Below, in pieces: positions 2,454 to 24,921 of a DNA stretch of 24,921 nucleotides. The stretch comes from Candidatus Woesearchaeota archaeon (GTDB taxonomy: Archaea > Nanobdellota > Nanobdellia > Pacearchaeales > GW2011-AR1). The DNA lies in assembly GCA_964639055.1 (NCBI GenBank), contig CAZXBY010000001.1:1-24921 (forward strand). Direction: 5' to 3'. A program made the position numbers and the translations under genes. Each line of letters starts with the position of its first letter. Within the stretch, counting starts at the first letter, position 1. The notes under the pieces are model-generated. The model did not search any database. It was not told the DNA's origin and was given only the letters and a program-made list of their open reading frames with translations.

Positions 2454-3774
2454 ATCAAAAGTAAAACAAATCAAATCAGGAAAACAGACAGCTTTGAATA
2501 ATCTCTTAGCCTTTTCAAAAAAAATAGCAACTCCAGGAACAAAAGACCTAAACATTTTTCTTAATTTAAATGAGAATGCGATAGAACAAGCAAAAAATAT
2601 TGATCAAAGAATAAAAAAAGGTGAAGAAGTTGGAAAATTAGCCGGAATTTGTTTTGCATTAAAATCAAATATTTCATACAAGGGAATTGAAACAAATTGT
2701 GCCTCAAAAGTCTTAGAAGGTTATGTCTCAGCATATAATGCAACTGTTGTAAACAAATTATTAACTGAAGACGCAATATTTTTAGGGATGACAAATATGG
2801 ACGAATTTGCTTGTGGCGCATCAGGAGAAACATCGGCCTTTGGACCAACAAAGAATCCAACCAACCCAGAATTAATCACCGGTGGTTCTTCATCCGGACC
2901 AGCAGCAGCGGTAGCAGCAGATCTCTGTGACTTTTCGCTAGGTTCAGATACAGGAGGCTCGATTAGAAATCCTGCATCACATTGTGGTGTAACCGGATTA
3001 AAACCATCATATGGCAAGGTTTCAAGATATGGTTTAATCGATATGTGTATGAGTTTTGATTGCATCGGGCCCTTAGCAAGAACAGTAGAAGATTGTAAAT
3101 TAGTACTAAGCGTAATAGAAGGTCAAGATCATTTTGATACAACAACAACGGAAGAAAAATATACTTCAAAATCCAAAGGCACAATAGGCCTAGTAAATGT
3201 TGAAAGCTTTGCAACTCCAGAAATTAAATCTAAAATAGAAACAAAAGTAAAAGAAGTTTCCAAAAAGAATAATTGGAAAATAAAAAAAATTACTCTTCCC
3301 TTAGATATTGCCCTAGAAACATATTATATTTTAGTATACACAGAATTTTTTTCAGGCACACGAAAGTTTGATGGTAGAAGATATGGAAAACTAATTGACC
3401 AAGCAGGCGGCCCCGAAGTACAACGAAGAATAATTGGAGGAAGCGAAATAACAAAAGCTGAGTTCGAAGGAAGGTATTATAGAGAAGCATTAAAAGCAAG
3501 GAATTTTATGAAAAAAGAATTTGAAAAAATATTTTCAAAATGTGATGCGATAATCTTGCCAACAGTTCCGAAATTAGCTCACAAAATAGGAGAAAAAATA
3601 ACACCAAAAGAAATGTATTCTTATGATGTATTCACAGTTCTAGCAAATATAGCGCAAATTCCAGCAATCTCAATTCCGATAGGAGAAATAGAGAGTAAAC
3701 AAGTGGGAATTCAATTAATGGCGCCAAGATTCAATGATGAGTTGCTCTTTAAATTAGGAAAAGATTTTGAATAA
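2443..3774 (+). CDS. gatA: Glutamyl/aspartyl-tRNA amidotransferase subunit A (amidase signature family)
   Basis: Amidase triad: ALKSNI (Lys), GGSSSG (cis-Ser) and GSDTGGSIRNPASHCG (Ser). Also TNMDEFA, GLKPSYGKVSRYGL and EVQRRIIGG. Confidence 0.95.
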   Translation: MTIKSKVKQIKSGKQTALNNLLAFSKKIATPGTKDLNIFLNLNENAIEQAKNIDQRIKKGEEVGKLAGICFALKSNISYKGIETNCASKVLEGYVSAYNATVVNKLLTEDAIFLGMTNMDEFACGASGETSAFGPTKNPTNPELITGGSSSGPAAAVAADLCDFSLGSDTGGSIRNPASHCGVTGLKPSYGKVSRYGLIDMCMSFDCIGPLARTVEDCKLVLSVIEGQDHFDTTTTEEKYTSKSKGTIGLVNVESFATPEIKSKIETKVKEVSKKNNWKIKKITLPLDIALETYYILVYTEFFSGTRKFDGRRYGKLIDQAGGPEVQRRIIGGSEITKAEFEGRYYREALKARNFMKKEFEKIFSKCDAIILPTVPKLAHKIGEKITPKEMYSYDVFTVLANIAQIPAISIPIGEIESKQVGIQLMAPRFNDELLFKLGKDFE

Positions 3775-4884: not shown

Positions 4885-6129
4885 ATGAGAGGTTCATATT
4901 CTACTCCTAATAATATGCCCCTCAAATATACTATTCCTGAGCATACGTTAAAATTTATATATCGATCAGGAAGAAATTCTCCAAGAAATTTCCCACTTGT
5001 TGTTGATGATCGTGTAAAAGAAGGTCTCCTTGTCCAGTCTCTTCTTGGTAACATACGGGCGGGCCACTTAACCAATACTCCCGCTCTCCCCGAAACAACA
5101 TTCGAAGAAGTTTGCGATTTATTAAGCAAAAGTTCTTACAGGATAAAACAAAAAAGAGAAAATCAAGTTTACGGGTTTAGGCAATGTTTTCACAAACTGC
5201 TTGAAGGCGACACTAACTGCCTAGTAAACGAAAACGGCTTTCCAATTTACGGTGTTAACTTTCTTAAAAGGTATCAAATAACTAACATAGAAGCGGCTCT
5301 TAAAGGCGCGGTTCTCTTGGGCCTCCATGATTCATCCGAATGGCGACAGCTAACAATGGAGCATTTCGGCACCGTTTTAAACGGCAATGTAGACATAAAT
5401 ATTGGGCATGGCCACGAATTCTTAATCTCTCGTAAACAATTGTACAAAAACGGAGGTTCAATTAGTAATCTTGAAAATGAAGCACACAAAGCCTGGGAAA
5501 TAGACAGGTATAGAGATCTCGGAGTAATAGTAAACGAACCAAATGAGGAAGCTACAGTCCAATATATAAGATCTAGTAAAGGTTTTGGAACATGCGACGA
5601 CGCTTCTCTATTAACTATAGGAAAAATCTACGGTCCAGACGCTTTCGTGATGGGCTTTTTAATGGATGCAACAGACACTTATGAAAAACATATAATTAAT
5701 CCAGTCGAAGGTGGCATAGACGAACAATACGCTAGGGAGATTCAGAGCAAATGGAAAGAAAAACATGGTAAAGATCTATTAACACCAGAAGAAATAATGA
5801 GAGTAATCTACCTTGGCGCAAAAAGTAACTCTTTTTTTCTCCCATTCTCAAGTTCACACAGAAGATTAGTCGAACGACCACAAAGAAAGAAAAAGCGTCC
5901 TTCCAGAAATGAACCTAAAAAACTAAGAAATTTCTTAATAAAAGAAGCACAAAATGGTCCAGAGCTATCCTCCCAGTCAACGGTTGAGAATCATATAAGG
6001 TTTTTAAAACAAGGATTCAGATTTCCCTGTAATCTCGGTTTCGATAGATTTCCTAGCATCAAATTCTATGAAGTAATGGAAAAGCGCTGGGAAATGTACG
6101 AAAAACGTTTCCAGACTCATTGTTTCTAG
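4885..6129 (+). CDS. Hypothetical protein, 414 aa, unknown function
   Basis: Long ORF with TATA-like ATATTTTTAAAA (4851-4862) 22 nt before the ATG. No family recognised. Confidence 0.85.
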   Translation: MRGSYSTPNNMPLKYTIPEHTLKFIYRSGRNSPRNFPLVVDDRVKEGLLVQSLLGNIRAGHLTNTPALPETTFEEVCDLLSKSSYRIKQKRENQVYGFRQCFHKLLEGDTNCLVNENGFPIYGVNFLKRYQITNIEAALKGAVLLGLHDSSEWRQLTMEHFGTVLNGNVDINIGHGHEFLISRKQLYKNGGSISNLENEAHKAWEIDRYRDLGVIVNEPNEEATVQYIRSSKGFGTCDDASLLTIGKIYGPDAFVMGFLMDATDTYEKHIINPVEGGIDEQYAREIQSKWKEKHGKDLLTPEEIMRVIYLGAKSNSFFLPFSSSHRRLVERPQRKKKRPSRNEPKKLRNFLIKEAQNGPELSSQSTVENHIRFLKQGFRFPCNLGFDRFPSIKFYEVMEKRWEMYEKRFQTHCF

Positions 6130-6269: not shown

Positions 6270-7349
6270 ATGCCATTAGATTTTACAAAAGAAGCAATCG
6301 AAACCGCTGAAGCAAATAGTATTAACTTTAACGAACTTCGTGCTGGTAAAGCTAACATAAAAGTATTCGGATGTGGTGGCTGTGGTTGTAACATGGCAAC
6401 ATGGTTATTCAACAAAGGTATCAACGGTGCAATAGTTTACGGACTAAATACAGACGCATTACACCTTTCAATCACCAAAACCGATGAAAAAATTTTAATA
6501 GGTAAAGAACTCACTCGTGGACTAGGTTGCGGAGGCTATCCTAAACGAGGTCGAGAAGCTGCAAAAGAATCTCTTACTGACCTGAAAAAAGCTGTTTCCA
6601 ATTCAGATATGGTTTTTGTTCTGGCTGGTATGGGAGGAGGAACTGGAACAGGTGCAATCCCTGTCGTAGCTCAACTCGCCAAAGATGCAGGAGCAGTCGT
6701 AATCGCCGTAGTCACAATGCCTTTCGAAGCTGAAAAAGCACGAATAGATAAAGCAGAGTTCGGCCTACAAGAGTTACGAGAATCGGTTGACACTGTGATT
6801 GTACTAGACAATAATCGTTTAGTAGACATAGCAGGTCAACTACCTATGGAACAAGCTTTCGCTGTCGCGAATGAATTAGTCTCAACAATGATTAAAGGAA
6901 TTGTAGAAACAATCACTTTACCATCATTAATTAATCTAGATTATGCCGATGTATCCTCAATAATGAAAAACGGAGATGTCGCTGTAATTGGAATAGGTGA
7001 AGACAATTCAAATGCTAAAGTTGATGCAGCCGTTCAACAAGCTCTAACACATCCATTATTAGATGTAGACTATAGAGGAGCCACAGGTGCATTAATTCAT
7101 GTAACCGCTGGACCCGATTTAAAATTAGAAGAGTTTGATAACATTGGTCGACTCGTAACCGAGAATTTATCACCAGAAGCGCAGGTAATAATCGGAGCTC
7201 GAGTAAATAAAGAATTTCAAGGACGAGTAAGAGTCATAACAATTATGACAGGAGTTAAATCTCCATATATTCTTGGAAAAAATCAACCAACGTTTAATGA
7301 AGAGCGACATGTTAGTATAAACGACCTAGGCCTAGACGATTTAGCCTAA
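6270..7349 (+). CDS. ftsZ: Cell division GTPase FtsZ (archaeal)
   Basis: GCGGCG T1 loop, NTD, TRGLGCGG, tubulin signature GMGGGTGTG and T7 loop NLDYADV. Confidence 0.97.
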   Translation: MPLDFTKEAIETAEANSINFNELRAGKANIKVFGCGGCGCNMATWLFNKGINGAIVYGLNTDALHLSITKTDEKILIGKELTRGLGCGGYPKRGREAAKESLTDLKKAVSNSDMVFVLAGMGGGTGTGAIPVVAQLAKDAGAVVIAVVTMPFEAEKARIDKAEFGLQELRESVDTVIVLDNNRLVDIAGQLPMEQAFAVANELVSTMIKGIVETITLPSLINLDYADVSSIMKNGDVAVIGIGEDNSNAKVDAAVQQALTHPLLDVDYRGATGALIHVTAGPDLKLEEFDNIGRLVTENLSPEAQVIIGARVNKEFQGRVRVITIMTGVKSPYILGKNQPTFNEERHVSINDLGLDDLA

Positions 7350-15604: not shown

Positions 15605-15663
15605 GAATATATATTGTTTTGATAATACATTTATTTTTAAAAGATTTTACATTGGATTTCTTT

Positions 15664-16038
15664 ATGATAGAAAAAAGAACTGATATTGGGAGACGAGAAG
15701 GCATAGAATATTTCGAGGCAAGATTTTTTATTCCGACTGGGCCATGTCATCTGAGAGATAGTGGTAATGACGGAAGGGCTCCGTTGACTGAGATTGATTT
15801 TGAAACTATGCACAGGGCTCATAAGCTTTTACTTCAAATTTCCGGAAGTTTTGTTGATTCATACAGAAGTTATGGAGCAGTTAACCATCATTTTCTTCTT
15901 TCAGGAGCTGTCATTGATATTGAGCGAGATAATTCTGGGAATATAAACACAACTTGCCCATACTACCTTGGAATTCTTCATGAAGAAAAGATGGATGTAG
16001 CATATGTTGCTAATAAACTTAAACTTCCATGTGAATGA
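15664..16038 (+). CDS. Hypothetical protein, about 124 aa
   Basis: ATG 15664 is 21 nt after TTTTTAAAA (15634-15642) and is preferred over the TTG 15619 start in the track. Confidence 0.75.
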   Translation: MIEKRTDIGRREGIEYFEARFFIPTGPCHLRDSGNDGRAPLTEIDFETMHRAHKLLLQISGSFVDSYRSYGAVNHHFLLSGAVIDIERDNSGNINTTCPYYLGILHEEKMDVAYVANKLKLPCE

Positions 16039-16043
16039 AGCTA

Positions 16044-17363
16044 CTAGCAAACTTGGTCTTTGTAGGTCCCCATTGTGATATGTGCTTTAAATGCTCGAAG
16101 CTGATGTTCCGTGAATCCTGAGAATGTTTCAACTATCTCCCTTACTGGTATTCCGTCGGCTAAAAGTTCTATTGCATCTTCTTTCGTTACCTTATCTAAT
16201 TTTTTCTTTCTTGCTCCTGGCTTGTATGAAGAGCCCAGAAATTCTCTTTTAGGGTTCCTAAAAAAAGCGGCTTGTTGGCCGAAGGCTTCTTCCACAAAGT
16301 CTTCCCTTTTTTTTAAAAGTTTGGCACACTTTTTGTGGGAATGTCCAGCTAGGGTTAAAATTTTGCCTGGCCCTTGGAATGTGTAAAAGTCGTCCCTTAT
16401 TCTTGTCCTCGAATCTTCTACTTGCCAACAGTCCATGAGCATTGGAGAGCCCTTATTACTTATGTAGGAGTAGGCGGTATGATCCTTTAAGTAATAAGAT
16501 TTCATTACAAACATCCAAAGATGATACATGAAATCTGGACTGAGATTTTTTCTTTTTGCTGAGTCAATCATCTCGCCCCATGTTTTACCTCGATAAAAAG
16601 CAGACCTTGCCAACTTTTCATAAAAATCTCTTCCTTCCATTTTAAGGCCTTCCTCGCCTTGAGCTTGAGCCAAATCATTGATATATCCCCTAAACCCAGC
16701 AGCATTTTTTGATAAAGGTTCTAACTTGAAAGGGTCTAGTGCTCCTTCACCCCAGGTCAAAGAGGAAAAAATTCCACTTTGAATTCCGTAAGATCTTGCA
16801 TTCTTAATTTTTACATCTTGAGCTTCCATTTTATCAAGAGTCCCAGCTGGATCTTTTGCGAAGTCGTCGTATCCAAGACCTGAAGCTCTTAACTGTTCTA
16901 CGAATAAAAGGTCCTGTGAAGCGAACTTGCCTTCTCTTGCCCCGTAATAGTTTGTAATGAGTGTACCACGTTTCCCTAAAAGTTTTCTTCCGGCTATTAA
17001 ATCAATAGCATATCTTTGCCTTCCACCGAAGTTGGAAGTGTAATCTAGGCTTATTATATCGAAAGTTCTATTCGTTTGTTGCAAGAAACTTATATCATCA
17101 GTGCATACAGCTTCTATTCCAAGGCCGGCGTCTTGTAATCTGTGTGCCTTTTTTTTATCATATTCCAATCCAGTAATGTTCTCCCTAGGTATGTTAAGAG
17201 GGTCATAAACCTCTTTAACTTCCAAGGCTTCTTGTCCCTGGGCCTCTGCCCCAGGAAAGCAAAGAACACTTAATTTTGATGGCCTTGCATAGTTTCTACC
17301 AATAAATTCTCTTATTCTGTCCCTAGAAACGCTTTTCGCGGGATCAATGTATGTTGTTTCCAT
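16044..17363 (-). CDS. Putative class I SAM-dependent methyltransferase-like protein with C-terminal HTH-like domain
   Basis: Rossmann-like motifs LSVLCFPGAE, ITGLEYD and FDIISLDY. C-terminal KEDAIELLADGIPVREIVETFSGFTEHQLRAFKAHITMGTY follows a basic linker. TATA box 21 nt upstream. Confidence 0.6.
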   Translation of the reverse strand: METTYIDPAKSVSRDRIREFIGRNYARPSKLSVLCFPGAEAQGQEALEVKEVYDPLNIPRENITGLEYDKKKAHRLQDAGLGIEAVCTDDISFLQQTNRTFDIISLDYTSNFGGRQRYAIDLIAGRKLLGKRGTLITNYYGAREGKFASQDLLFVEQLRASGLGYDDFAKDPAGTLDKMEAQDVKIKNARSYGIQSGIFSSLTWGEGALDPFKLEPLSKNAAGFRGYINDLAQAQGEEGLKMEGRDFYEKLARSAFYRGKTWGEMIDSAKRKNLSPDFMYHLWMFVMKSYYLKDHTAYSYISNKGSPMLMDCWQVEDSRTRIRDDFYTFQGPGKILTLAGHSHKKCAKLLKKREDFVEEAFGQQAAFFRNPKREFLGSSYKPGARKKKLDKVTKEDAIELLADGIPVREIVETFSGFTEHQLRAFKAHITMGTYKDQVC

Positions 17364-18543: not shown

Positions 18544-18659
18544 GATTGATTTAAGTTATTATAATTTATAAAAGTGTTTGTTGTCTCTCTTTGTTTGTCT
18601 GTCACTTAATAGTAATAACCTATAGGAAGTTTTATAAAGGCAAAAACCAGGTATTTCAT

Positions 18660-19085
18660 ATGGAAATAAGCGAAATACCTGGAAATACCTATCAAGGCGG
18701 GTTTTCTAATGAAGATTCTTTGAATACCTTGGGCAAGGTAAAAATAGACTCCTTAAAAGAGAATATCAATGAAATAGAGGATCAACTTAGTGAAAGACAG
18801 GATATTAGTTCTGAGTTTGAAAAAGAGGGAGAAAAGATGAAAAGAGACATTAATAATTTTTTATCTGAAAATTCACCTAAGGGTGAAGATGATTCTGAAT
18901 TTGCACGAGAAAGAGCAGAATTAAGGCGAAAAAAGATTGAGATTAGCGAAATGCAGTTGAATGAGAAGGTTAATTGCTGGAAAGATGTTGTTCTTTTAAA
19001 AAAGGATTTAAGAGAAAAGCAAAAAGAACTTTTTGAGAGAGAGAACAGAATGGAGACAATTAATCAAATTTTAGGAGATAAATAA
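18660..19085 (+). CDS. Coiled-coil protein, about 141 aa; first gene of the ATPase operon
   Basis: ATG 18660 is 21 nt after GAAGTTTTATAAA (18626-18638). Long heptad-like E/K-rich helices surround EKVNCWKDVVLLKKDLRE. Confidence 0.85.
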   Translation: MEISEIPGNTYQGGFSNEDSLNTLGKVKIDSLKENINEIEDQLSERQDISSEFEKEGEKMKRDINNFLSENSPKGEDDSEFARERAELRRKKIEISEMQLNEKVNCWKDVVLLKKDLREKQKELFERENRMETINQILGDK

Positions 19086-19086
19086 T

Positions 19087-19413
19087 ATGGCTACCAGATA
19101 CCATTTTGGAGACATAAATACGCTTGATTCTTCTCAGGTTAGGAGTGCGGTTGAAAGAGCGGAAAGGGACATAACTGATGTTTTAGACGTTTTTTTAAAC
19201 GATGGTGTTTCTTTGGGAGCTAAGCCTTCTGTAAGGATTGAAGATTTAAATGGATACTATGCTGATGTTAGGGATAGACTTGAAGAATTAGGAGAGGCTT
19301 ATTTTGAAAAACAAGGAGAACATCCTCCTAAATATGAAGGAGCTATTAGAAAAGTTGATATTATTTTGGGACATTTACAAGATTTAGAATCTCGTCAGGA
19401 AGGTTCAAGATGA
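19087..19413 (+). CDS. Hypothetical acidic helical protein, 108 aa
   Basis: Starts 1 nt after the upstream stop, has GGAG upstream, and has an ATGA overlap with the ATPase. Confidence 0.8.
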   Translation: MATRYHFGDINTLDSSQVRSAVERAERDITDVLDVFLNDGVSLGAKPSVRIEDLNGYYADVRDRLEELGEAYFEKQGEHPPKYEGAIRKVDIILGHLQDLESRQEGSR

Positions 19414-21671
19414 TAAGTCAGAGAGCGTTAACAGCTGAAGATATTTGCCAAAAGCTTAAACCTATTTATGGGAATAAGATTGACAAAATTTATTTTAATT
19501 ATGCTACTAGCGAAAGCAGGGAAGCAAAAGAAGAACTTCTGTCAATGATGAACGCACTTTATCAGAAGCATTTTAATGAACTTTTAGGACAGAAGATGCT
19601 TTTGTCTCCACCCAATGGAAAGGACGTTCAAGGAGACTATAAAATTGGCGAAGTTATGTATGGAAAAAATAATGTTTGCTCATTTTCCTTGAGAGAAAAG
19701 GATTTTCCTAGGCATGTTTGTATTAGTGGAATGAGTGGTAGTGGGAAGACTACACTTGCATTTAATGTTCTTGAATCTTTAACTGCAAAAGATAAACCAT
19801 TTTTGGTTTTTGATTGGAAGAAATCTTTTAGGCCTCTTTTAGCTAAGGATGAAAAAATTGCGTGTTTTACTATTGGCGACAATAAATTGGCTAATAACTT
19901 TAAGTTGAATTTAAATCAACCGCCTAAAGGAATTGCTCCGAAAGAATGGATTACAATTATTTGTGATTTGATTGCTGAGAGTTTTTTTGTTTCTTATGGT
20001 GTTCATAAGATTCTTCTTGAGACTTTGGATGAATCATTTAAGGAGTGGGGAATTTATAGTGGAAGCAACAATTATCCTACTTGGAATCACATCAAATGGA
20101 GACTTGAAGAGAAATTAGAAAAATCTAAAAGTAGAGCACAGGGTTGGATTGAATCAGCGTTAAGGGTTGCAACAGTTTTGACATTTGGAGATTTTGGTGA
20201 GGTTATGAATTATAAGGGCGGAAAAAGTGTTTCTGTTGAGGATATCATGAAGGGCAGGGTTATCTTTGAAATGAATTCACTTGGTAGTATTGAGAAAAAA
20301 TTCTTTTGTGAGTTTATTTTAATGTATATTTACAAGTTAAAAAAGGCTGGAGCAAACGGCATTGAGAATAGTTTTGATTATGCTATTTTAGTTGATGAAG
20401 CCCATAATATTTTTTTAAAGGATAAGACTAATTTTACTCAGGAATCTGTTACTGATATGATTTATAGGGAGATGAGAGAGTATGGTATTAGTTTAATTTG
20501 TTTAGATCAACATATTTCAAAACTTTCTGATACTGTTAAGGGAAACAGTGCTTGTCATATTGCTTTTCAGCAACAATTACCTGACGATATCGACGCTATT
20601 AGTCGTTTGATGCATTTATATGACCAGAAGGAATTATTTTCAAGTTTAAAGGTTGGTAGTGCTGTTGTTAAACTGAGTGAGAGGTATACTAAGCCGTTTT
20701 CTATTCAAGCTCCTTGGACTGACATTAGAAAGTTAAAAGTTAGCGAGAGTGATATTAAGGGAAGAGTTCAAAGATTTTTAATGGGGAATGAATTTGTTAA
20801 CAATACTGATAAACAATTTAATGAAGAATTAAAGGCTGGAAAAAGCTTTGACTTGAATAAATTATTTTCTAAGATTCATTTGCCGAAGTTAAATTTAAGA
20901 GCTACTCAGAGTGAAGTTGTTAGTAATCCCTCTAACATTAGTTATCTTAATGATAATCCTGAAAAAGACCCCACAAAACCTTTAATCAATCTTAAGGGTA
21001 ATCTTGTTTATGATGCTGAGAAAGAACCTGAAAGTTCTCTTTCTGAAGAGGAAACTGTTTACGCTACTATTAAGAAGAAAATTGATAATGGAGAAGAGTT
21101 GAATGATATTGAAAAGAAATTAGAGTTTATCTATAATCCTGTAGCTGTTAATAAGGCGGTTAACAGGGTTTTTGAGGAACAATTGTCTAAGAAGATGACT
21201 ATTCGGGTTAAAGAAGCTTCTATACCTCAGAATGAGTTCTTTGAGAGTGAAAATAATGAGGGGAAAGGTAAAGAGGAAAAAACTATTATTGAAGAAGTTC
21301 CTATGTCAATAGATGGTAAAAGTGATTTTTTGGTTCCTAAGATGCCTTTAATGCTATCTGAATCAGGTATACCAATAGAAAAATGTAATATGCCTCTTAA
21401 ACATAGGGGAAACAAGGGCGAACAAAAGCTTTATAAAACGTCATTATCTAGTAGTAAACACAGAGGTTTAAGCGATGAGGAGAGTAAATTCATTACTTTT
21501 CTTGAATCAAATCCAGACCATGGATTAACAACGGTTAATCTGTATAAGGCAGTTGGTTTTTCTCCAAGAAAGGGGAATAAAATCAAGAACCTTTTAGTAG
21601 GAAAAGAGTTATTAAAGGTTCAAGAGATTAAGTACAACAAGGGCTGGAAAAAGATTATTAGATTAAACTAA
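19410..21671 (+). CDS. HerA/VirB4/TraG-like (FtsK-HerA superfamily) P-loop ATPase with C-terminal winged-helix-like domain
   Basis: FPRHVCISGMSGSGKTT (Walker A), ILVDEAHN (Walker B), EMREYGISLICLDQH, and VKGNSACHIAF. The C-terminal about 65 aa read LSDEESKFITFLESNPDHGLTTVNLYKAVGFSPRKGNKIKNLLVGKELLKVQEIKYNKGWKKIIRLN. Confidence 0.9.
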   Translation: MISQRALTAEDICQKLKPIYGNKIDKIYFNYATSESREAKEELLSMMNALYQKHFNELLGQKMLLSPPNGKDVQGDYKIGEVMYGKNNVCSFSLREKDFPRHVCISGMSGSGKTTLAFNVLESLTAKDKPFLVFDWKKSFRPLLAKDEKIACFTIGDNKLANNFKLNLNQPPKGIAPKEWITIICDLIAESFFVSYGVHKILLETLDESFKEWGIYSGSNNYPTWNHIKWRLEEKLEKSKSRAQGWIESALRVATVLTFGDFGEVMNYKGGKSVSVEDIMKGRVIFEMNSLGSIEKKFFCEFILMYIYKLKKAGANGIENSFDYAILVDEAHNIFLKDKTNFTQESVTDMIYREMREYGISLICLDQHISKLSDTVKGNSACHIAFQQQLPDDIDAISRLMHLYDQKELFSSLKVGSAVVKLSERYTKPFSIQAPWTDIRKLKVSESDIKGRVQRFLMGNEFVNNTDKQFNEELKAGKSFDLNKLFSKIHLPKLNLRATQSEVVSNPSNISYLNDNPEKDPTKPLINLKGNLVYDAEKEPESSLSEEETVYATIKKKIDNGEELNDIEKKLEFIYNPVAVNKAVNRVFEEQLSKKMTIRVKEASIPQNEFFESENNEGKGKEEKTIIEEVPMSIDGKSDFLVPKMPLMLSESGIPIEKCNMPLKHRGNKGEQKLYKTSLSSSKHRGLSDEESKFITFLESNPDHGLTTVNLYKAVGFSPRKGNKIKNLLVGKELLKVQEIKYNKGWKKIIRLN

Positions 21672-21897
21672 TTTTCAAGCCCCGAAGCTTTTGATTTATT
21701 CTTCCAAAATTAAGTAAGGAAGAAAAATAAAAGAGTTTCAAAAAAAGGGTTAAGATAAAATATTGAAGAAGACAAAAGAAACTTAGAAAACAAATCATAA
21801 TTGCTTTAAACAAAAAAGCAAAGGCTTGAGTTAAAAAAACTTTAAGTCTAAATCACAAAATCATATTCAAATATTATTACACAAATCACAAACCACA

Positions 21898-22042
21898 AAC
21901 GACTACACTTCACTTAAGAAATTTTTCTTAAGTATTTACTAACGACTACATAAGAGACTACAAAAAATATAACAAAATATACAACAAAATATATAACAAA
22001 AACCCAAGAAATCCAAAAAAGACTTTCTTGATAACGACTACA
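21898..22042 (+). repeat. Direct repeats AACGACTACA x3 (plus variants)
   Basis: Exact copies at 21898-21907, 21941-21950 and 22033-22042. Variants GAGACTACA at 21954-21962 and AAACTACA at 22111-22118. All are in the same orientation. Confidence 0.85.
21912..21933. repeat. Perfect inverted repeat ACTTAAGAAA-TT-TTTCTTAAGT
   Basis: 10-bp arms with a 2-nt spacer, lying between the first two AACGACTACA copies. Confidence 0.85.
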
Positions 22043-22121
22043 CCGATACGGATGTGAAAAAAACAACAAATCAACAAATCAAATTCTGAGAACTTAACAG
22101 AAAGAATACTAAACTACAAGT

Positions 22122-22191
22122 GAAATACCTTGAAATACCCAATTATGCACAGCGGAATACCCTTTCTATCGACGGAAATACCCGAAATACC
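22122..22191 (+). repeat. Iteron-like direct repeats GAAATACC x4 (+1 variant)
   Basis: Exact copies at 22122, 22132, 22175 and 22184 (two tandem pairs), with GGAATACC at 22154. Confidence 0.85.
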
Positions 22192-22319
22192 ATGAGATAT
22201 ATACTTTTTATGAAAGGATGCCATAATAAAAAAAGAAACCTAAAAAGAATGGAAGAGAAATATTAAGAAAAAACCAATCTTCTTGGAGCTTTAGGCTTTG
22301 AGTGATTAATGATACACTA

Positions 22320-22340
22320 TCTCAAACGAAATGTTTGAGA
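22320..22340. promoter_or_regulatory. Operator-like inverted repeat TCTCAAAC-gaaat-GTTTGAGA
   Basis: Perfect 8-bp arms with a 5-nt spacer, about 90 nt upstream of the first island gene. Confidence 0.4.
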
Positions 22341-22429
22341 AAAAGAGCTTTCAAGTTTTCTTGATCAAATGGATGGTCTAGCTTGAAGCTTAAGCAATTC
22401 TTTTCCACAAAAGGTGAAGGAGAAAAACT

Positions 22430-22954
22430 ATGTCATTTTTGACTGAATCCCTAAATAGGCCTCTTGATGGAACTAATAAGAGTAAGGTTTCAACTTGGAT
22501 TCCGATACTCTTGGTGTTTCTCCTCTCTCTCAACCTTTTTGTTGCCGTGTATAACTTGTTGGAAAATTCCCGTAAGGATGAGGAGAACATTCAGTTCGTT
22601 GTGAACTTTCTGATGGAGAGGGAAAGTGGATGTCGTGTGGAGGTCGGTGAACTTCTTGCTAAAAAAAGGAAACTGAGCAATGAGTTCTCTAAACGACGAA
22701 TCGACAAGGAAGAGCTCTCCTTGGAGGATATTGAGTCACTTAATCTTGAGCTACAGCAGTTCAATACAAGGATGGACGAGATTCAAGAAAGGATGTCTGT
22801 CTGCGAGATTATTATTGCTCGAGATTGGATTGACATTGCACGAATGGTTGACGAAAATGATGGGATTAATTTTCCACTTCCAGCCATTGAAATCATGAAA
22901 GCTTGGCACATACGTCAAAAAGGAGGTGACAACCGAAAAAAGACTGAGACGTAA
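22430..22954 (+). CDS. Membrane-anchored coiled-coil protein
   Basis: AAGGAG 7 nt upstream; single TM (WIPILLVFLLSLNLFVAVYNLL); helical hairpin with two Cys (GCRVE, MSVCE). Confidence 0.8.
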   Translation: MSFLTESLNRPLDGTNKSKVSTWIPILLVFLLSLNLFVAVYNLLENSRKDEENIQFVVNFLMERESGCRVEVGELLAKKRKLSNEFSKRRIDKEELSLEDIESLNLELQQFNTRMDEIQERMSVCEIIIARDWIDIARMVDENDGINFPLPAIEIMKAWHIRQKGGDNRKKTET

Positions 22955-23178
22955 GTTGGGAAGAACTTCCCTTTCATAGTACTGTGGTTAATTCTGCTGA
23001 TCTTATTAAAATAGAGAAGGAGGTAATCCTTGGAGCTAGATGAATGTTGAATTTCCAGTCCATCAATCCCCCCCATCCTAGCTTTGAATAGTCTGGAAAT
23101 TCGTTTTTCTCCCCGTTATGGACAATTTGAACAGAAAGGAGTCTTTTTTTATGAAACTGGAAAAGAGAAGAGGCAAAG

Positions 23179-23664
23179 ATGAATTCTTATATTTCGTTTG
23201 GCGTTTTGTTCGTTGCTGCTGTTTTTGCTCATTGTGCAAATGACGAACAAATGGTCGCATGGGCCGAGGTTCTTGATGTTTTGTCGGCTCTGGTTGTTGT
23301 TTATTACGTCGCTTTTTTGAAAATGAAGCCGAAGACACGATGGCATGGATTCTGGTTAGCGATGTTGACAATCTCAGTAATTACGCCATTCACAATTGTT
23401 TGTGTCTCTGATTTGAGTGGAGCTTGGGGACACAGAGTTAGTCAGGCATTTAGTCCTGATGAAGCTATTGTTGATGTGAGTGATGCGGGGTTGCAATTGC
23501 TTGGTGACGCTAAAGATACTTTCAAGATTCTTTTTAGAGCAGTTGTCATGACTGATCCACAGATTCTTGCAAGTTCAAAAAACCAGGTTCATTGGTGGAT
23601 TGCTTATGTTTTTGCTTTTATAGCGATTTGCTTTCTCATTCACAAAGGTGGCAAAAACCTATAA
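23179..23664 (+). CDS. Multi-pass membrane protein (3-4 hydrophobic segments)
   Basis: Hydrophobic stretches FGVLFVAAVFA, VLSALVVVYYVAFL, FWLAMLTISVITPFTIVCV and WWIAYVFAFIAICFLI. GAGG 5 nt upstream. Confidence 0.8.
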   Translation: MNSYISFGVLFVAAVFAHCANDEQMVAWAEVLDVLSALVVVYYVAFLKMKPKTRWHGFWLAMLTISVITPFTIVCVSDLSGAWGHRVSQAFSPDEAIVDVSDAGLQLLGDAKDTFKILFRAVVMTDPQILASSKNQVHWWIAYVFAFIAICFLIHKGGKNL

Positions 23665-23715
23665 AAAAACCTAAACCAATCTATCATTCCTTTTCACTAT
23701 TGGGAGGTCAATTAA

Positions 23716-24060
23716 ATGACAACTTTTTCAAAGAACACTATTCAGGACATTCTCCTAACGAGAGATGAAGAACAAATATGTAGAGCTTTTAAGGAAATCA
23801 AGTCATCATTTGCCTTTCTTATTGGGCAAGGGATGGGTGTAATTGAACGGATTCCCGAGATAAATTTGGCTTCCATTGGCTTCTATGACATTAGAGAAAG
23901 ATGGAGTTCTCTTGATCAAAGATGTTTAAAGAAAATGAAGGCCAAAGAAAATATACGTGGAGAGCTTCTCTCTGGTGAAGACGTCCCTTGTTTGGACTGG
24001 CTTATTCGACTACGTGGTCATTTGAACACGATTCAGAGGCTGCTTATTGGTATGAATTAG
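23716..24060 (+). CDS. Hypothetical helical protein, 114 aa
   Basis: GGGAGGT 7 nt before the ATG. No family recognised. Confidence 0.75.
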   Translation: MTTFSKNTIQDILLTRDEEQICRAFKEIKSSFAFLIGQGMGVIERIPEINLASIGFYDIRERWSSLDQRCLKKMKAKENIRGELLSGEDVPCLDWLIRLRGHLNTIQRLLIGMN

Positions 24061-24139
24061 CTGGAAGAAAGAACAAGTTCCTCTGGAATCAAAGGATCAA
24101 CTCGTTGTTTGTTTATTCAACTGTAACAAGGAGAAAGAC

Positions 24140-24232
24140 ATGAAGTCGTCAGGATTGACAAGGATGCAATGGATATTGTTGCTTTTGGATTTTGCTCTTG
24201 GGAGTATTGTAGCGAGCAGCCTAATCCCATAG
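24140..24232 (+). CDS. 30-aa hydrophobic peptide (below the ORF-track cutoff)
   Basis: AAGGAG 6 nt before the ATG. Sequence MKSSGLTRMQWILLLLDFALGSIVASSLIP*. Confidence 0.6.
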   Translation: MKSSGLTRMQWILLLLDFALGSIVASSLIP

Positions 24233-24337
24233 CAAAAAAATACAGGGGCAGAAAACATTTTACATCTGAGGTTCTTATTTTTTCAAGTGTATGTTTGCTC
24301 GAGAGAACTTTAGATATTCATAAGAGAAAGGAGAAAC

Positions 24338-24790
24338 GTGAACATAACTAAAAGGTTTGTCGAATTGTTGGGTGGTGAAGTAGAATGCCATAAAGAGACT
24401 ATAACGTCTATTCGTCTTTATGGTACAAAAACGATTGACTTAGACTTGGAGATTCTTCGTAGTCTTGGTAGGCTCGAAGAACTGGTTGAACTTGACCTTG
24501 CCAACACTGGCATCACAGACAGTGGTCTTGTTCGTCTTCGAAAGATCGAGAGTCTAAGGGGATTGACACTCAACAATACAGGTGTAACAGATGACGGTCT
24601 TGTGCATCTTCAGAGACTTGGCAACCTTGATCATCTTGATCTTGAGAATTTGTCAGTGACTAATTCTGGGCTTGTGCATCTTTATGCTTTCCAGAATCTC
24701 AGATTCCTAAATCTTTCTGGCACGAATGTGACAGAAGAAGGAATTCTTCGGCTGAAAAAAGCATTGCCGAAATGTGATGTTGATTATTAG
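24338..24790 (+). CDS. Leucine-rich repeat protein (four 24-aa RI/AMN1-like repeats)
   Basis: Repeats of the form LxxLxxLxLxxTx(I/V)TDxGLxxL with 24-residue period and an LKKALPKC cap. GTG start with AAGGAG 4 nt upstream. Confidence 0.9.
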   Translation: MNITKRFVELLGGEVECHKETITSIRLYGTKTIDLDLEILRSLGRLEELVELDLANTGITDSGLVRLRKIESLRGLTLNNTGVTDDGLVHLQRLGNLDHLDLENLSVTNSGLVHLYAFQNLRFLNLSGTNVTEEGILRLKKALPKCDVDY

Positions 24791-24800
24791 CCGGGAGTGG

Positions 24801-24921
24801 TAGCACTGAGAAAAAGTAGTTGCTAAGAGTTCGTTTCGTGCGGACCAAGACTGCAAAGAAGTAGTATTCTTTGGCATCTGGGTTGAGACCTCTATTATTG
24901 TAAAAGTACAAGGTAGGGGTC
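24801..24921 (+). ncRNA. Candidate structured RNA element (three successive hairpins)
   Basis: Hairpins at 24801-24825, 24843-24884 and 24887-24921. The last is a 15-bp stem with three G-U pairs on the + strand. No family recognised. Confidence 0.3.

Follow-up and report, generated by a model that had tools for sequence, protein, structure and literature searches.

The window studied here, that is, the whole stretch of 24,921 nucleotides (nt) from contig CAZXBY010000001.1 of a Candidatus Woesearchaeota archaeon, belongs to a DPANN-type archaeal chromosome of low GC content (~0.33-0.34), and its genes include an aminoacyl-tRNA synthetase, GatA, FtsZ, a KaiC-like ATPase and DHH/RecJ-like genes. 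It carries an operon that encodes a small coiled-coil protein (gene A), an orphan open reading frame (ORF B) and a HerA/VirB4-clade ATPase (gene C), followed by a conserved noncoding element (element E). We compared this locus with 85 related loci from ~80 Nanoarchaeia species, five of them retrieved from metagenomes and 80 from species-representative genomes. A, C and E form a module that is co-conserved throughout the class Nanoarchaeia, in the Pacearchaeota, Woesearchaeota and Nanoarchaeota lineages. Within it, copies of the motif G(A/G)AATACC are restricted to either end of the operon, in E and in the 90 nt that open gene A, and almost all of them are co-oriented with the genes.

Genes A, B and C lie head to tail on the + strand, with 1 nt between A and B and a B-C overlap of ATGA. 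The operon of three genes and the single TATA box described in the initial annotation, made from the sequence alone, are both present. Gene A (18660..19085, +) encodes a soluble coiled-coil protein of 141 amino acids (aa) that is a conserved partner of the ATPase: a homologue lies upstream of the ATPase in 80 of the 85 loci, at 38-72% identity, and the remaining five are truncated contigs. The family has 104 database homologues; no Pfam domain was found in it, nor any relative in the PDB by profile search. ORF B (19087..19413, +; 108 aa) lies between A and C and outside the conserved module. It had no tblastn match in the 85 loci and retrieved only itself among 5.8 billion proteins, and its GC content is 0.367 vs. 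0.32-0.33 for A and C. A directly abuts C in about 40% of the loci, and elsewhere a gap of 0.2-3 kb holds small ORFs from many unrelated families. Since B lacks homologues and the interval between A and C is empty or filled with unrelated ORFs elsewhere, the conserved unit consists of A and C, and ORF B reads, on these sequence comparisons, as a lineage-specific insertion. Thus, of the three-gene synteny proposed at first, the pairing of A with the ATPase stood, and a three-gene system was rejected because B is an orphan. No transmembrane (TM) segment was predicted in A, B or C, as judged from the maximum 19-residue Kyte-Doolittle score.

Gene C (19410..21671, +) encodes a soluble 753-aa ATPase of the HerA/VirB4 clade. 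It comprises a helical N-terminus (aa 1-60), the ATPase core (aa 70-490), a disordered linker, a three-helix domain (aa 546-603), a second disordered linker and a winged helix (aa 689-753). In the AlphaFold model, the core reached a predicted local distance difference test (pLDDT) score >90, and linkers 495-543 and 604-672 were disordered. We called invariant columns over 75 homologues. They cover Walker A GMSGSGKT (aa 107-114, nt 19728..19751; G107, M108, S109, G110, G112, K113 and T114 invariant, S111 in at least 90%), Walker B VDEAHN (aa 328-333, nt 20391..20408), REMREYG (aa 353-359, nt 20466-20486) and DQH (aa 366-368), all on the + strand. This agrees with the initial annotation, which had listed the Walker A/B, EMREYG and DQH motifs and the long linker.

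Database and structure searches placed C close to HerA. We found more than 754 homologues at 45-71% identity (46-71% for the best 120), nearly all from Nanoarchaeota, Pacearchaeota or Woesearchaeota. In Pfam, C matched DUF87 (PF01935; E-value 2.8e-8, 34.6 bits against a cut-off of 23.2) and generic P-loop families, and neither FtsK_SpoIIIE (PF01580) nor FtsK_gamma was matched in the same scan. Foldseek searches with the core retrieved HerA (4d2i, E-value 2.4e-14), DndH-C (7es4) and VirB4 (4ag5), with TM-scores of 0.72-0.75. The NCBIfam matches to CedD, the nearest named model there (58.1 bits, cut-off 600), and to the HerA equivalog (26.5 bits, cut-off 800) were far below their cut-offs, and ParA models gave Walker-A-level matches only (E-values 0.003-0.02). 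The maximum Kyte-Doolittle score of C was 1.48, with no TM segment, and its N-terminus was modelled as soluble helices.

The C-terminal winged helix-turn-helix domain (aa 689-753, nt 21474..21668, +) is a predicted fold, modelled with an H-H-H-beta-beta (E-E) topology at pLDDT 94-98. When modelled in isolation, it matched the winged helices of MarR/MepR, TFE-alpha, PadR and DnaD-N, with root-mean-square deviations of 1.8-2.6 Å over 67-68 residues. The winged-helix-like C-terminus claimed at first is therefore a confident prediction, with MarR, TFE-alpha and PadR among its structural matches. S718, R720, K721, G722 and K726, in or beside helix 3, are invariant. The winged helix is the sole DNA-binding fold found in the module, which makes it, on the strength of the models, the candidate reader of the motif.

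The operon promoter (18600..18639, +) contains an upstream box GTCACTTAATAGTAATAAC, a sequence resembling a B recognition element (BRE), AGGAAG, and the TATA box TTTATAAA at 18631-18638. We compared promoters and A starts across 66 homologous loci. The promoter is unusually well conserved, with the consensus AATAGAAAGATTTATAAAG. The TATA box lies 29 nt upstream of the ATG of A, and the distance is identical in 58 of the 66 promoters; from this distance, the A-C transcript is leaderless. A second conserved box, GTNACT...TAGTA, lies ~10-30 nt before the TATA box (18600-18620 in the window, and at the equivalent position in ~66 loci) and is possibly a further regulator site.

In the window, the motif GAAATACC occurs in seven exact copies vs. 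0.69 expected, and none of 100 shuffles reached seven. Four copies form a phased array downstream of the ATPase (22122..22191, +), at 22122, 22132, 22175 and 22184, together with GGAATACC at 22154. All are in the sense orientation, and their spacings of 10, 22, 21 and 9 bp correspond to about 1, 2, 2 and 1 helical turns. The initial annotation had reported same-orientation repeats and a palindrome downstream of the ATPase, and GAAATACC, ACGACTAC and the palindrome at 21912-21933 are indeed there. It had overlooked that three of the seven copies sit at the start of gene A. This 5' cluster (18650..18689, both strands) consists of an antisense copy, GGTATTTC, at 18650-18657 between the TATA box and the ATG, and of two sense copies at 18672-18679 and 18682-18689, which are 10 bp apart and in two different reading frames.

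The same distribution was found across the class when we counted the motif in non-redundant loci, with expected values from shuffles. The 72 kb downstream of the ATPase stop (within 1 kb per locus) contained 127 sense and 19 antisense copies of GAAATACC (2.0 and 0.7 expected), and the 18 kb around the start of A contained 28 and 8 (0.6 and 0.3 expected). In the other 839 kb, the motif was at chance level (20 and 11 copies vs. 18.5 and 13.5 expected). Downstream arrays recur in homologous loci, in line with the first description of the repeats: among 75 loci with enough sequence after the ATPase stop, G(A/G)AATACC was present at least once in 62 and at least twice in 49. At the other end of the operon, 59 of 66 loci presented a sense copy (at most one mismatch) in the first 90 nt of A, compared to 3.5% of control windows, and seven loci, the window included, presented an antisense copy between the TATA box and the start site.

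The copies at the start of A occupy all three reading frames (63/26/21, read as the peptides EIP, GNT and WNTS), and thus the constraint acts on the nucleotides and not on the protein. The first 100 nt of A showed no folding signal (z = -0.26). We therefore consider these copies to be recognition sites rather than strands of a helix, and a 5' hairpin of the A mRNA, formed by motif and anti-motif, was rejected on the same value. A coding repeat was also rejected, as the copies lie in differing frames both in A and in a small ORF at 22120-22266. This 48-aa GTG-initiated ORF overlaps the array and is almost certainly no gene, because its motif copies are in different frames and it has no homologue in any locus. 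From its distribution, we take GAAATACC to be a class-wide cis-element located at both ends of the operon.

Copies were also seen inside gene C. About ten loci (L029, L033, L041, L044, L051, L062, L063, L065, L083) carry one or two sense copies of GAAATACC in the linker-coding part (~aa 480-520), and in L044 and L083 these form a tandem pair, 9 bp apart. A metagenome-wide scan for tandem GAAATACC was uninformative on a regulon: three of 120 matches carried the ATPase, and most were chance matches in unrelated DNA.

Successive sense copies downstream of the ATPase are set at preferred distances, with clusters at 10-11, 21-23, 31-33, 41-43, 50-55, 63-65, 71-75, 83-84, 93-97, 106-107 and 133-136 bp. 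When periods from 7 to 14 bp were scanned on these copies, the peak lay at 10.5-10.6 bp, with R = 0.80 and a Rayleigh p of ~4e-21, and leaving out tandem copies gave R = 0.77 and p ~1e-15, both p-values being inflated by the shared ancestry of related genomes. In 5000 control sets with a jitter of up to 5 bp, the observed value was never reached. Moreover, the phasing was recovered separately in two groups of loci that differ in their upstream synteny, at 10.6 bp (R = 0.79) and 10.4 bp (R = 0.76). Eleven different multiples of one period are hard to explain by descent. Since the spacings are multiples of the B-DNA repeat, the copies lie on one face of double-stranded DNA. Such phasing, the hallmark of proteins that bind a single face of the helix, is the strongest argument for a motif that is read as DNA.

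Element E (21861..22215, +), in which the downstream copies are embedded, starts with a TCATATTCA box (21861-21869), followed by an AC-rich tract, AACGACTAC boxes at 21898, 21941 and 22033, hairpins, the phased array and a T5 run at 22205-22209. Homologous elements are present in nearly all loci as conserved noncoding sequences of ~250-450 nt with a common order: the TCATATTCA box, the AC-rich tract, a (C/T)GAC(T/A)AC box with a hairpin, and motif copies interleaved with hairpins. The 3' end is often a terminal GAAATACC-N8-10-GGTATTTC pair, after which come the Shine-Dalgarno sequence and the ATG of the next gene. The TCATATTCA box was found in 27 exact copies and in 26 with one mismatch, and it usually abuts or overlaps the stop codon of the ATPase gene. 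Relative to the stop, the box is offset by -39 to +30 in most loci, compared to 90-250 in the window and in L001, L004, L005, L008, L015 and L042. In the window, the distance is filled by an AT-rich spacer of 189 nt (21672..21860, +; GC 0.25), which is missing in most relatives.

Duplicates of the gene end were seen at this junction in two other loci. In L001 (~7160-7215), a 31-nt duplicate of the last ATPase codons (30/31 identical, z = 12) precedes the TCATATTCA box and flanks a 90-nt insertion, and L014 (~3661-3727) has a comparable 23-nt duplicate of the ATPase gene end. Both look like insertion footprints at the gene-element junction. In the window, a seeming duplicate of the gene end was not significant (z = -0.1).

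The ACGACTAC sequence is present in three copies in the window (21899, 21942 and 22034; 0.14 expected). Together with the palindrome, these repeats represent the window's version of the box-plus-hairpin unit, in triplicate. The first description of them as repeats beside the ATPase was right as far as they are real; it had not foreseen that they belong to a conserved element with covarying hairpins. The palindrome itself (hairpin Pa, 21912..21933, +; ACTTAAGAA / TTCTTAAGT) comes directly after the first AACGACTAC box. Two more predicted hairpins at 22005..22055 (+), CAAGAAAUCC...CUUUCUUG and CACCGAUACGGAUGUG, flank the third AACGACTAC box and appear in both the minimum-free-energy and the centroid structures. 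A hairpin at the position of Pa is found in 18 Pacearchaeota-type elements (model R1), where the stem sequences differ and nine of nine pairs show compensatory changes; the window's own element is outside the R1 alignment, and Pa was equated with the aligned hairpin by its position.

Most loci have no recognizable promoter before the TCATATTCA box, as scanned with a position weight matrix built from the 66 A promoters. As there is no separate promoter, and a Shine-Dalgarno sequence and an ATG follow the element, E is probably transcribed together with A-C. A promoter for E within the 3' end of the ATPase gene was not supported: sites were at background except in L077 and, by eye, at the displaced element of L036. 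In L036 (7905-10923), C and E are 2.9 kb apart owing to an inserted block that includes a pyruvate-phosphate dikinase gene, and E has a canonical BRE/TATA of its own, AGAAAATCTTATAAA, in front of it. In L077, a canonical promoter lies 36 nt before the TCATATTCA box. With promoters of its own in these two loci, E can be an independent transcription unit.

Our leading proposal, which we advance tentatively, is that the tethered winged helices of C bind the phased sites that flank their own operon, serving both autoregulation and site-specific loading. C would assemble into a hexameric ring like its structural relatives, and the six tethered winged helices would bind phased sites on one face of the helix. 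Binding at +12 to +75 of the leaderless A, and in seven loci also between the TATA box and the start site, would shut off the operon, since these 5' sites overlap the point where transcription and translation begin. At E, the motor would be assembled, loaded or parked on binding, and from this fixed address on the chromosome it would act directionally on DNA. A may be a coiled-coil adaptor or regulator of the motor. The cellular process served may be segregation, resolution, or the control or transfer of the variable region that lies downstream.

Several observations weigh against this proposal. Exact downstream copies of G(A/G)AATACC are lacking in 13 of the 75 loci, which have weaker variants such as GGAAAACC. 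A DNA-processing partner (nuclease, recombinase or membrane channel) was not consistently adjacent across loci. The comparison of changes in the motif with changes in the winged helix has no power, as both are nearly invariant. A regulator encoded elsewhere could read the motif, and its strong sense-strand bias would also fit a signal at the RNA level. Finally, if E were simply an array of double-stranded sites, it would have no need of its single-strand structure, for which there are two lines of evidence. In a covariance alignment, 85% of the cells were paired (26-57% in controls with slid partners), with compensatory changes in 18 of 25 pairs. When 240-nt elements were folded without an alignment, median z-values were -3.68 for the coding strand, -2.71 for the complement and +0.14 for a coding control, and the coding strand folded better than the complement (p = 9e-5).

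The covariance model behind the first of these results was built for a sub-region, as whole-element alignment with MAFFT and RNAalifold misaligned the variable stems, and it covers the Pacearchaeota-type architecture only. Its matches, at E-values <0.01 in 18 loci, were all on the + strand and 3' of the ATPase gene. The covariation score was 0.378 vs. 0.168 for shuffles (0/500 reached the observed score), in an alignment that was fitted to the model itself. The window's own element folded with z = -3.27. Helix mismatches of the G-U type and the A-C type were counted as 33 and 34, and choosing the strand from these counts was uninformative. No Rfam 15 family matched at E-values up to 1 between 18400 and 24921, where no tRNA or tmRNA was found either. 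The covarying hairpins thus indicate a structured transcript or single strand, and the structure, on the coding strand, is probably that of the transcript. Element E is therefore made of two layers, phased double-strand sites and a conserved single-strand structure.

These results are the natural ground for a different explanation, in which E is mainly a structured RNA (a 3' untranslated region, an intercistronic leader or a small RNA), G(A/G)AAUACC is an RNA signal and the function of the ATPase is unrelated to the repeats. The motif could then be a protein-binding site or the pairing partner of GGUAUUUC-like segments, and could control the translation or stability of the leaderless A-C mRNA as well as the expression of the membrane-protein genes that follow. 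Besides the covarying hairpins and the folding of the coding strand, probable cotranscription with the operon fits this explanation, as do the ~7:1 excess of sense over antisense copies, the frequent pairing of antisense copies with a sense copy 8-10 nt away, and the location of sense copies within the transcribed 5' end of A. However, a structured RNA would not explain why copies in unrelated architectures keep to multiples of 10.5 bp. No folding signal was seen at the 5' end of the A mRNA, the equal mismatch counts are not an RNA signature, the antisense copy of seven loci, including the window, falls outside the leaderless transcript, and Rfam holds no matching family. On balance, we consider this explanation rather doubtful, and less likely than the proposal of winged helices on phased DNA.

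A bolder version of that proposal takes the module as an essential and hitherto unrecognised DNA machine of Nanoarchaeia. A HerA-clade hexamer that assembles through six tethered winged helices on a phased iteron array, at one address on the chromosome and with its coiled-coil partner, would then be a new centromere, loader, translocation or even initiator-like system, and the hairpins of E would be a structured RNA or single-strand co-factor. We think it unlikely. Its initiator-like variant could even mark the border of the variable region of the genome. A replication origin was considered and rejected, as neither Orc1/Cdc6 nor any other replication gene recurs within 6 kb of any locus, and GC skew in the window tracks gene orientation.

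A chromosomal partition or centromere-like system would use the repeats as the centromere, C as both centromere binder and motor NTPase, and A as an adaptor, with par-like autoregulation. The layout is indeed par-like, with iterated phased sites at the promoter of an NTPase operon and directly downstream of it, and the module is kept at a single conserved locus, in a fixed syntenic position in every surveyed species and with housekeeping-level conservation. Nevertheless, we judge it improbable: C is not an NTPase of the ParA, ParM or TubZ type, features of filament formation or of a nucleoid adaptor were not found, and the absence of Orc1/Cdc6 within 6 kb of every locus leaves no link to an origin. 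Furthermore, it is a special case of binding by C at its own phased sites rather than an independent model.

The genomic surroundings bear on a further explanation. Conserved neighbours of the module lie only upstream: clustering of neighbouring genes into families (82 loci) retrieved L18e/L13/S9 or L10e/L35Ae ribosomal proteins, a UPF0020-type methyltransferase, GatD/GatE and a HAD hydrolase, with threonyl-tRNA synthetase, a KaiC-like ATPase and tryptophanyl-tRNA synthetase (TrpRS) added in the closest relatives of the window. Downstream of E no family is conserved, and the largest has six members. The downstream genes are nearly all co-oriented (+), and the first of them is usually a gene for a small membrane protein, a lipoprotein or a secreted protein. 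In the window, the genes at 22216-24921 have a GC content of 0.39-0.41 vs. 0.33 overall, and they encode two TM proteins and a leucine-rich repeat protein (24338-24790). With conserved genes upstream and hypervariable ones downstream, E forms an abrupt boundary between the core and the variable part of the genome. Pfam, NCBIfam and PADLOC scans found no nuclease, Sir2, relaxase or NurA among the neighbouring genes, as the initial annotation had said, and no NurA, Mre11 or Rad50 was found in the window or among the recurrent gene families of the 82 loci.

Tyrosine recombinases were observed near the module in some of these loci. In 26 Woesearchaeota-type loci (including L010, L011, L027, L033, L041, L044, L051, L053 and L058-L077), a conserved pair of tyrosine-recombinase genes (~277 aa and 111-184 aa; a single fused gene in L060) is found 1.5-4.3 kb upstream of A, on the far side of the L18e-L13-S9 operon. 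The block of recombinase and HAD genes is inverted in L012 and begins at the ATPase stop, in the usual place of E.

A hotspot of recombination or integration (tRNA-like att or dif-type) at E would account for part of this picture, with A-C at the edge of a plasticity zone or aiding a recombinase as FtsK aids XerCD. The loss of gene-family conservation downstream while upstream synteny is kept would follow from it, and so would the higher GC content of the window's downstream genes, the gene-end duplicates of L001 and L014, the insertion between C and E in L036, the recombinase pair near A and the inverted block that replaces E in L012. However, no att-like repeats were found between the downstream genes of the window and no dif-like inverted 11-mers in E. 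The recombinase synteny is limited to one order, with a ribosomal-protein operon between the pair and A, and the phased array and the copies at the A promoter are left unexplained. We therefore hold a hotspot to be very improbable as the explanation of the module.

The last explanation, in which C serves a HerA-effector defence system (Sir2-HerA, DUF4297-HerA, MADS or Dnd-like) or is an ATPase of viral or plasmid packaging or transfer, receives hardly any credence from us: weak matches (PADLOC mad8 at 1.2e-12 and HerA models down to 3.4e-12, a PHROG terminase, and CedD in NCBIfam) and a structural likeness to defence HerA proteins and DndH-C speak for it, but an adjacent effector (nuclease, Sir2 or DUF4297) was not found, the module is kept in all sampled species at syntenic core positions and at 45-71% identity, unlike defence islands, its relatives are absent from 2.9 million viral contigs (IMG/VR), on which a viral origin was rejected, and, in contrast to CedB, CedD and VirB4, neither a TM domain nor a membrane partner is present (PMC11868833).

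Elsewhere in the window, a 414-aa ORF at 4885-6129, between a DHH-family gene and FtsZ, had no Pfam match at E-values up to 0.001. Two orphan ORFs of 139 aa (+) and 439 aa (-) lie at 15619-17363, between the KaiC-like gene and TrpRS, as an insertion relative to L001-L003, and both have homologues in 0/85 loci. The longer one has a GC content of 0.40, and its C-terminus weakly matches resolvase-type HTH_7. Among the public records that bear the module, L006, L019, L084 and P0084 go under the labels 'Patescibacteria group bacterium', 'Desulfobulbaceae bacterium', 'bacterium' or 'Methanococcoides sp. SA1', and they are likely to be DPANN contigs that were mislabelled or wrongly binned.

Few uncultivated archaea are as abundant as the Pacearchaeota and Woesearchaeota, whose genomes are tiny and whose chromosome biology is essentially unknown. 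A two-gene module that recurs at 45-71% identity in every sampled species, and does so with a cis-element of its own, very likely has a central role in these cells. The module also lends itself to direct tests, since its 8-bp site and its winged helix are both defined and the phasing of the copies can be disrupted at will. Should the array prove to be read by the winged helix, a HerA-clade motor would be targeted to a single DNA locus, a case that we did not find in the literature, and the FtsK-KOPS principle would extend to archaea in a different form. Element E, which is absent from Rfam, is also a candidate for a new structured motif in RNA or DNA. Moreover, the conserved/hypervariable border at E may help to explain the diversification of surface proteins in these symbionts.

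Regarding known systems, our literature search retrieved nothing relevant on the family, the motif or a DPANN HerA with a winged helix. HerA defence systems differ from the module, which lacks an adjacent Sir2, nuclease or methylation module and is neither patchy nor island-like. The large T antigen of simian virus 40, E1 of papillomaviruses and Rep of adeno-associated virus are likewise ring NTPases with a DNA-binding domain of their own and with short repeats beside inverted repeats and a conserved box. However, they belong to superfamily 3 and C to FtsK-HerA, and the module has no nuclease/HUH domain, viral context or evidence of an origin.

Among solved structures, C comes closest in fold to HerA of HerA-NurA (4d2i), with which it has the DUF87 central domain in common. 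The module differs from HerA-NurA in having no NurA, Mre11 or Rad50 neighbour and in a helical N-terminus in which no HAS-barrel was detected, whereas HerA-NurA has no counterpart of the three-helix and winged-helix domains of C, of the coiled-coil partner or of the cis-element. With VirB4, CedB and CedD, C shares the ATPase fold (TM-score 0.74-0.75 against VirB4 4ag5) and the weak CedD match. CedD is a TM protein of the DNA-import system of Sulfolobales, which is induced by DNA damage (PMC11868833). In contrast, C has no TM segment and no match to a VirB4-type N-terminal domain, CedA, VirB6 and pilin genes were not found nearby, and the module has no conserved membrane partner, its downstream genes being non-homologous between species.

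Similar in layout are ParR-parC of plasmid R1, RepA iterons and OmpR/PhoB, which also present short direct repeats at whole helical turns beside or at the promoter of an NTPase operon. Winged helices that bind head-to-tail on tandem repeats are an established mode of recognition. By analogy with partition and iteron loci, autoregulation of the module is likely. Partition loci, however, pair ParA, ParM or TubZ with a separate binder, whereas the module has a HerA-clade ring ATPase fused to its DNA-binding domain. Compared to partition and iteron loci, it is also chromosomal and class-wide, and its array sits inside a structured element with covarying hairpins.

Finally, the likeness to FtsK and its orienting polar sequences (KOPS), suggested by the initial annotation, held in part. 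C is a ring ATPase of the FtsK-HerA superfamily with a predicted winged helix on a flexible C-terminal tether, the 8-bp motif is oriented, and in one order tyrosine-recombinase genes lie near the module. However, the motor is of the HerA/VirB4 clade, with no match to FtsK_SpoIIIE and no N-terminal membrane anchor. Its winged helix appears generic, with no Pfam match to FtsK_gamma and with MarR, TFE and PadR as the nearest structures. The motif is helically phased, and in 927 kb of flanks it was confined to the locus, neither dispersed nor skewed as KOPS are. Tentatively, we propose a module that would work like FtsK-KOPS or like an autoregulated partition locus while being a member of neither family.

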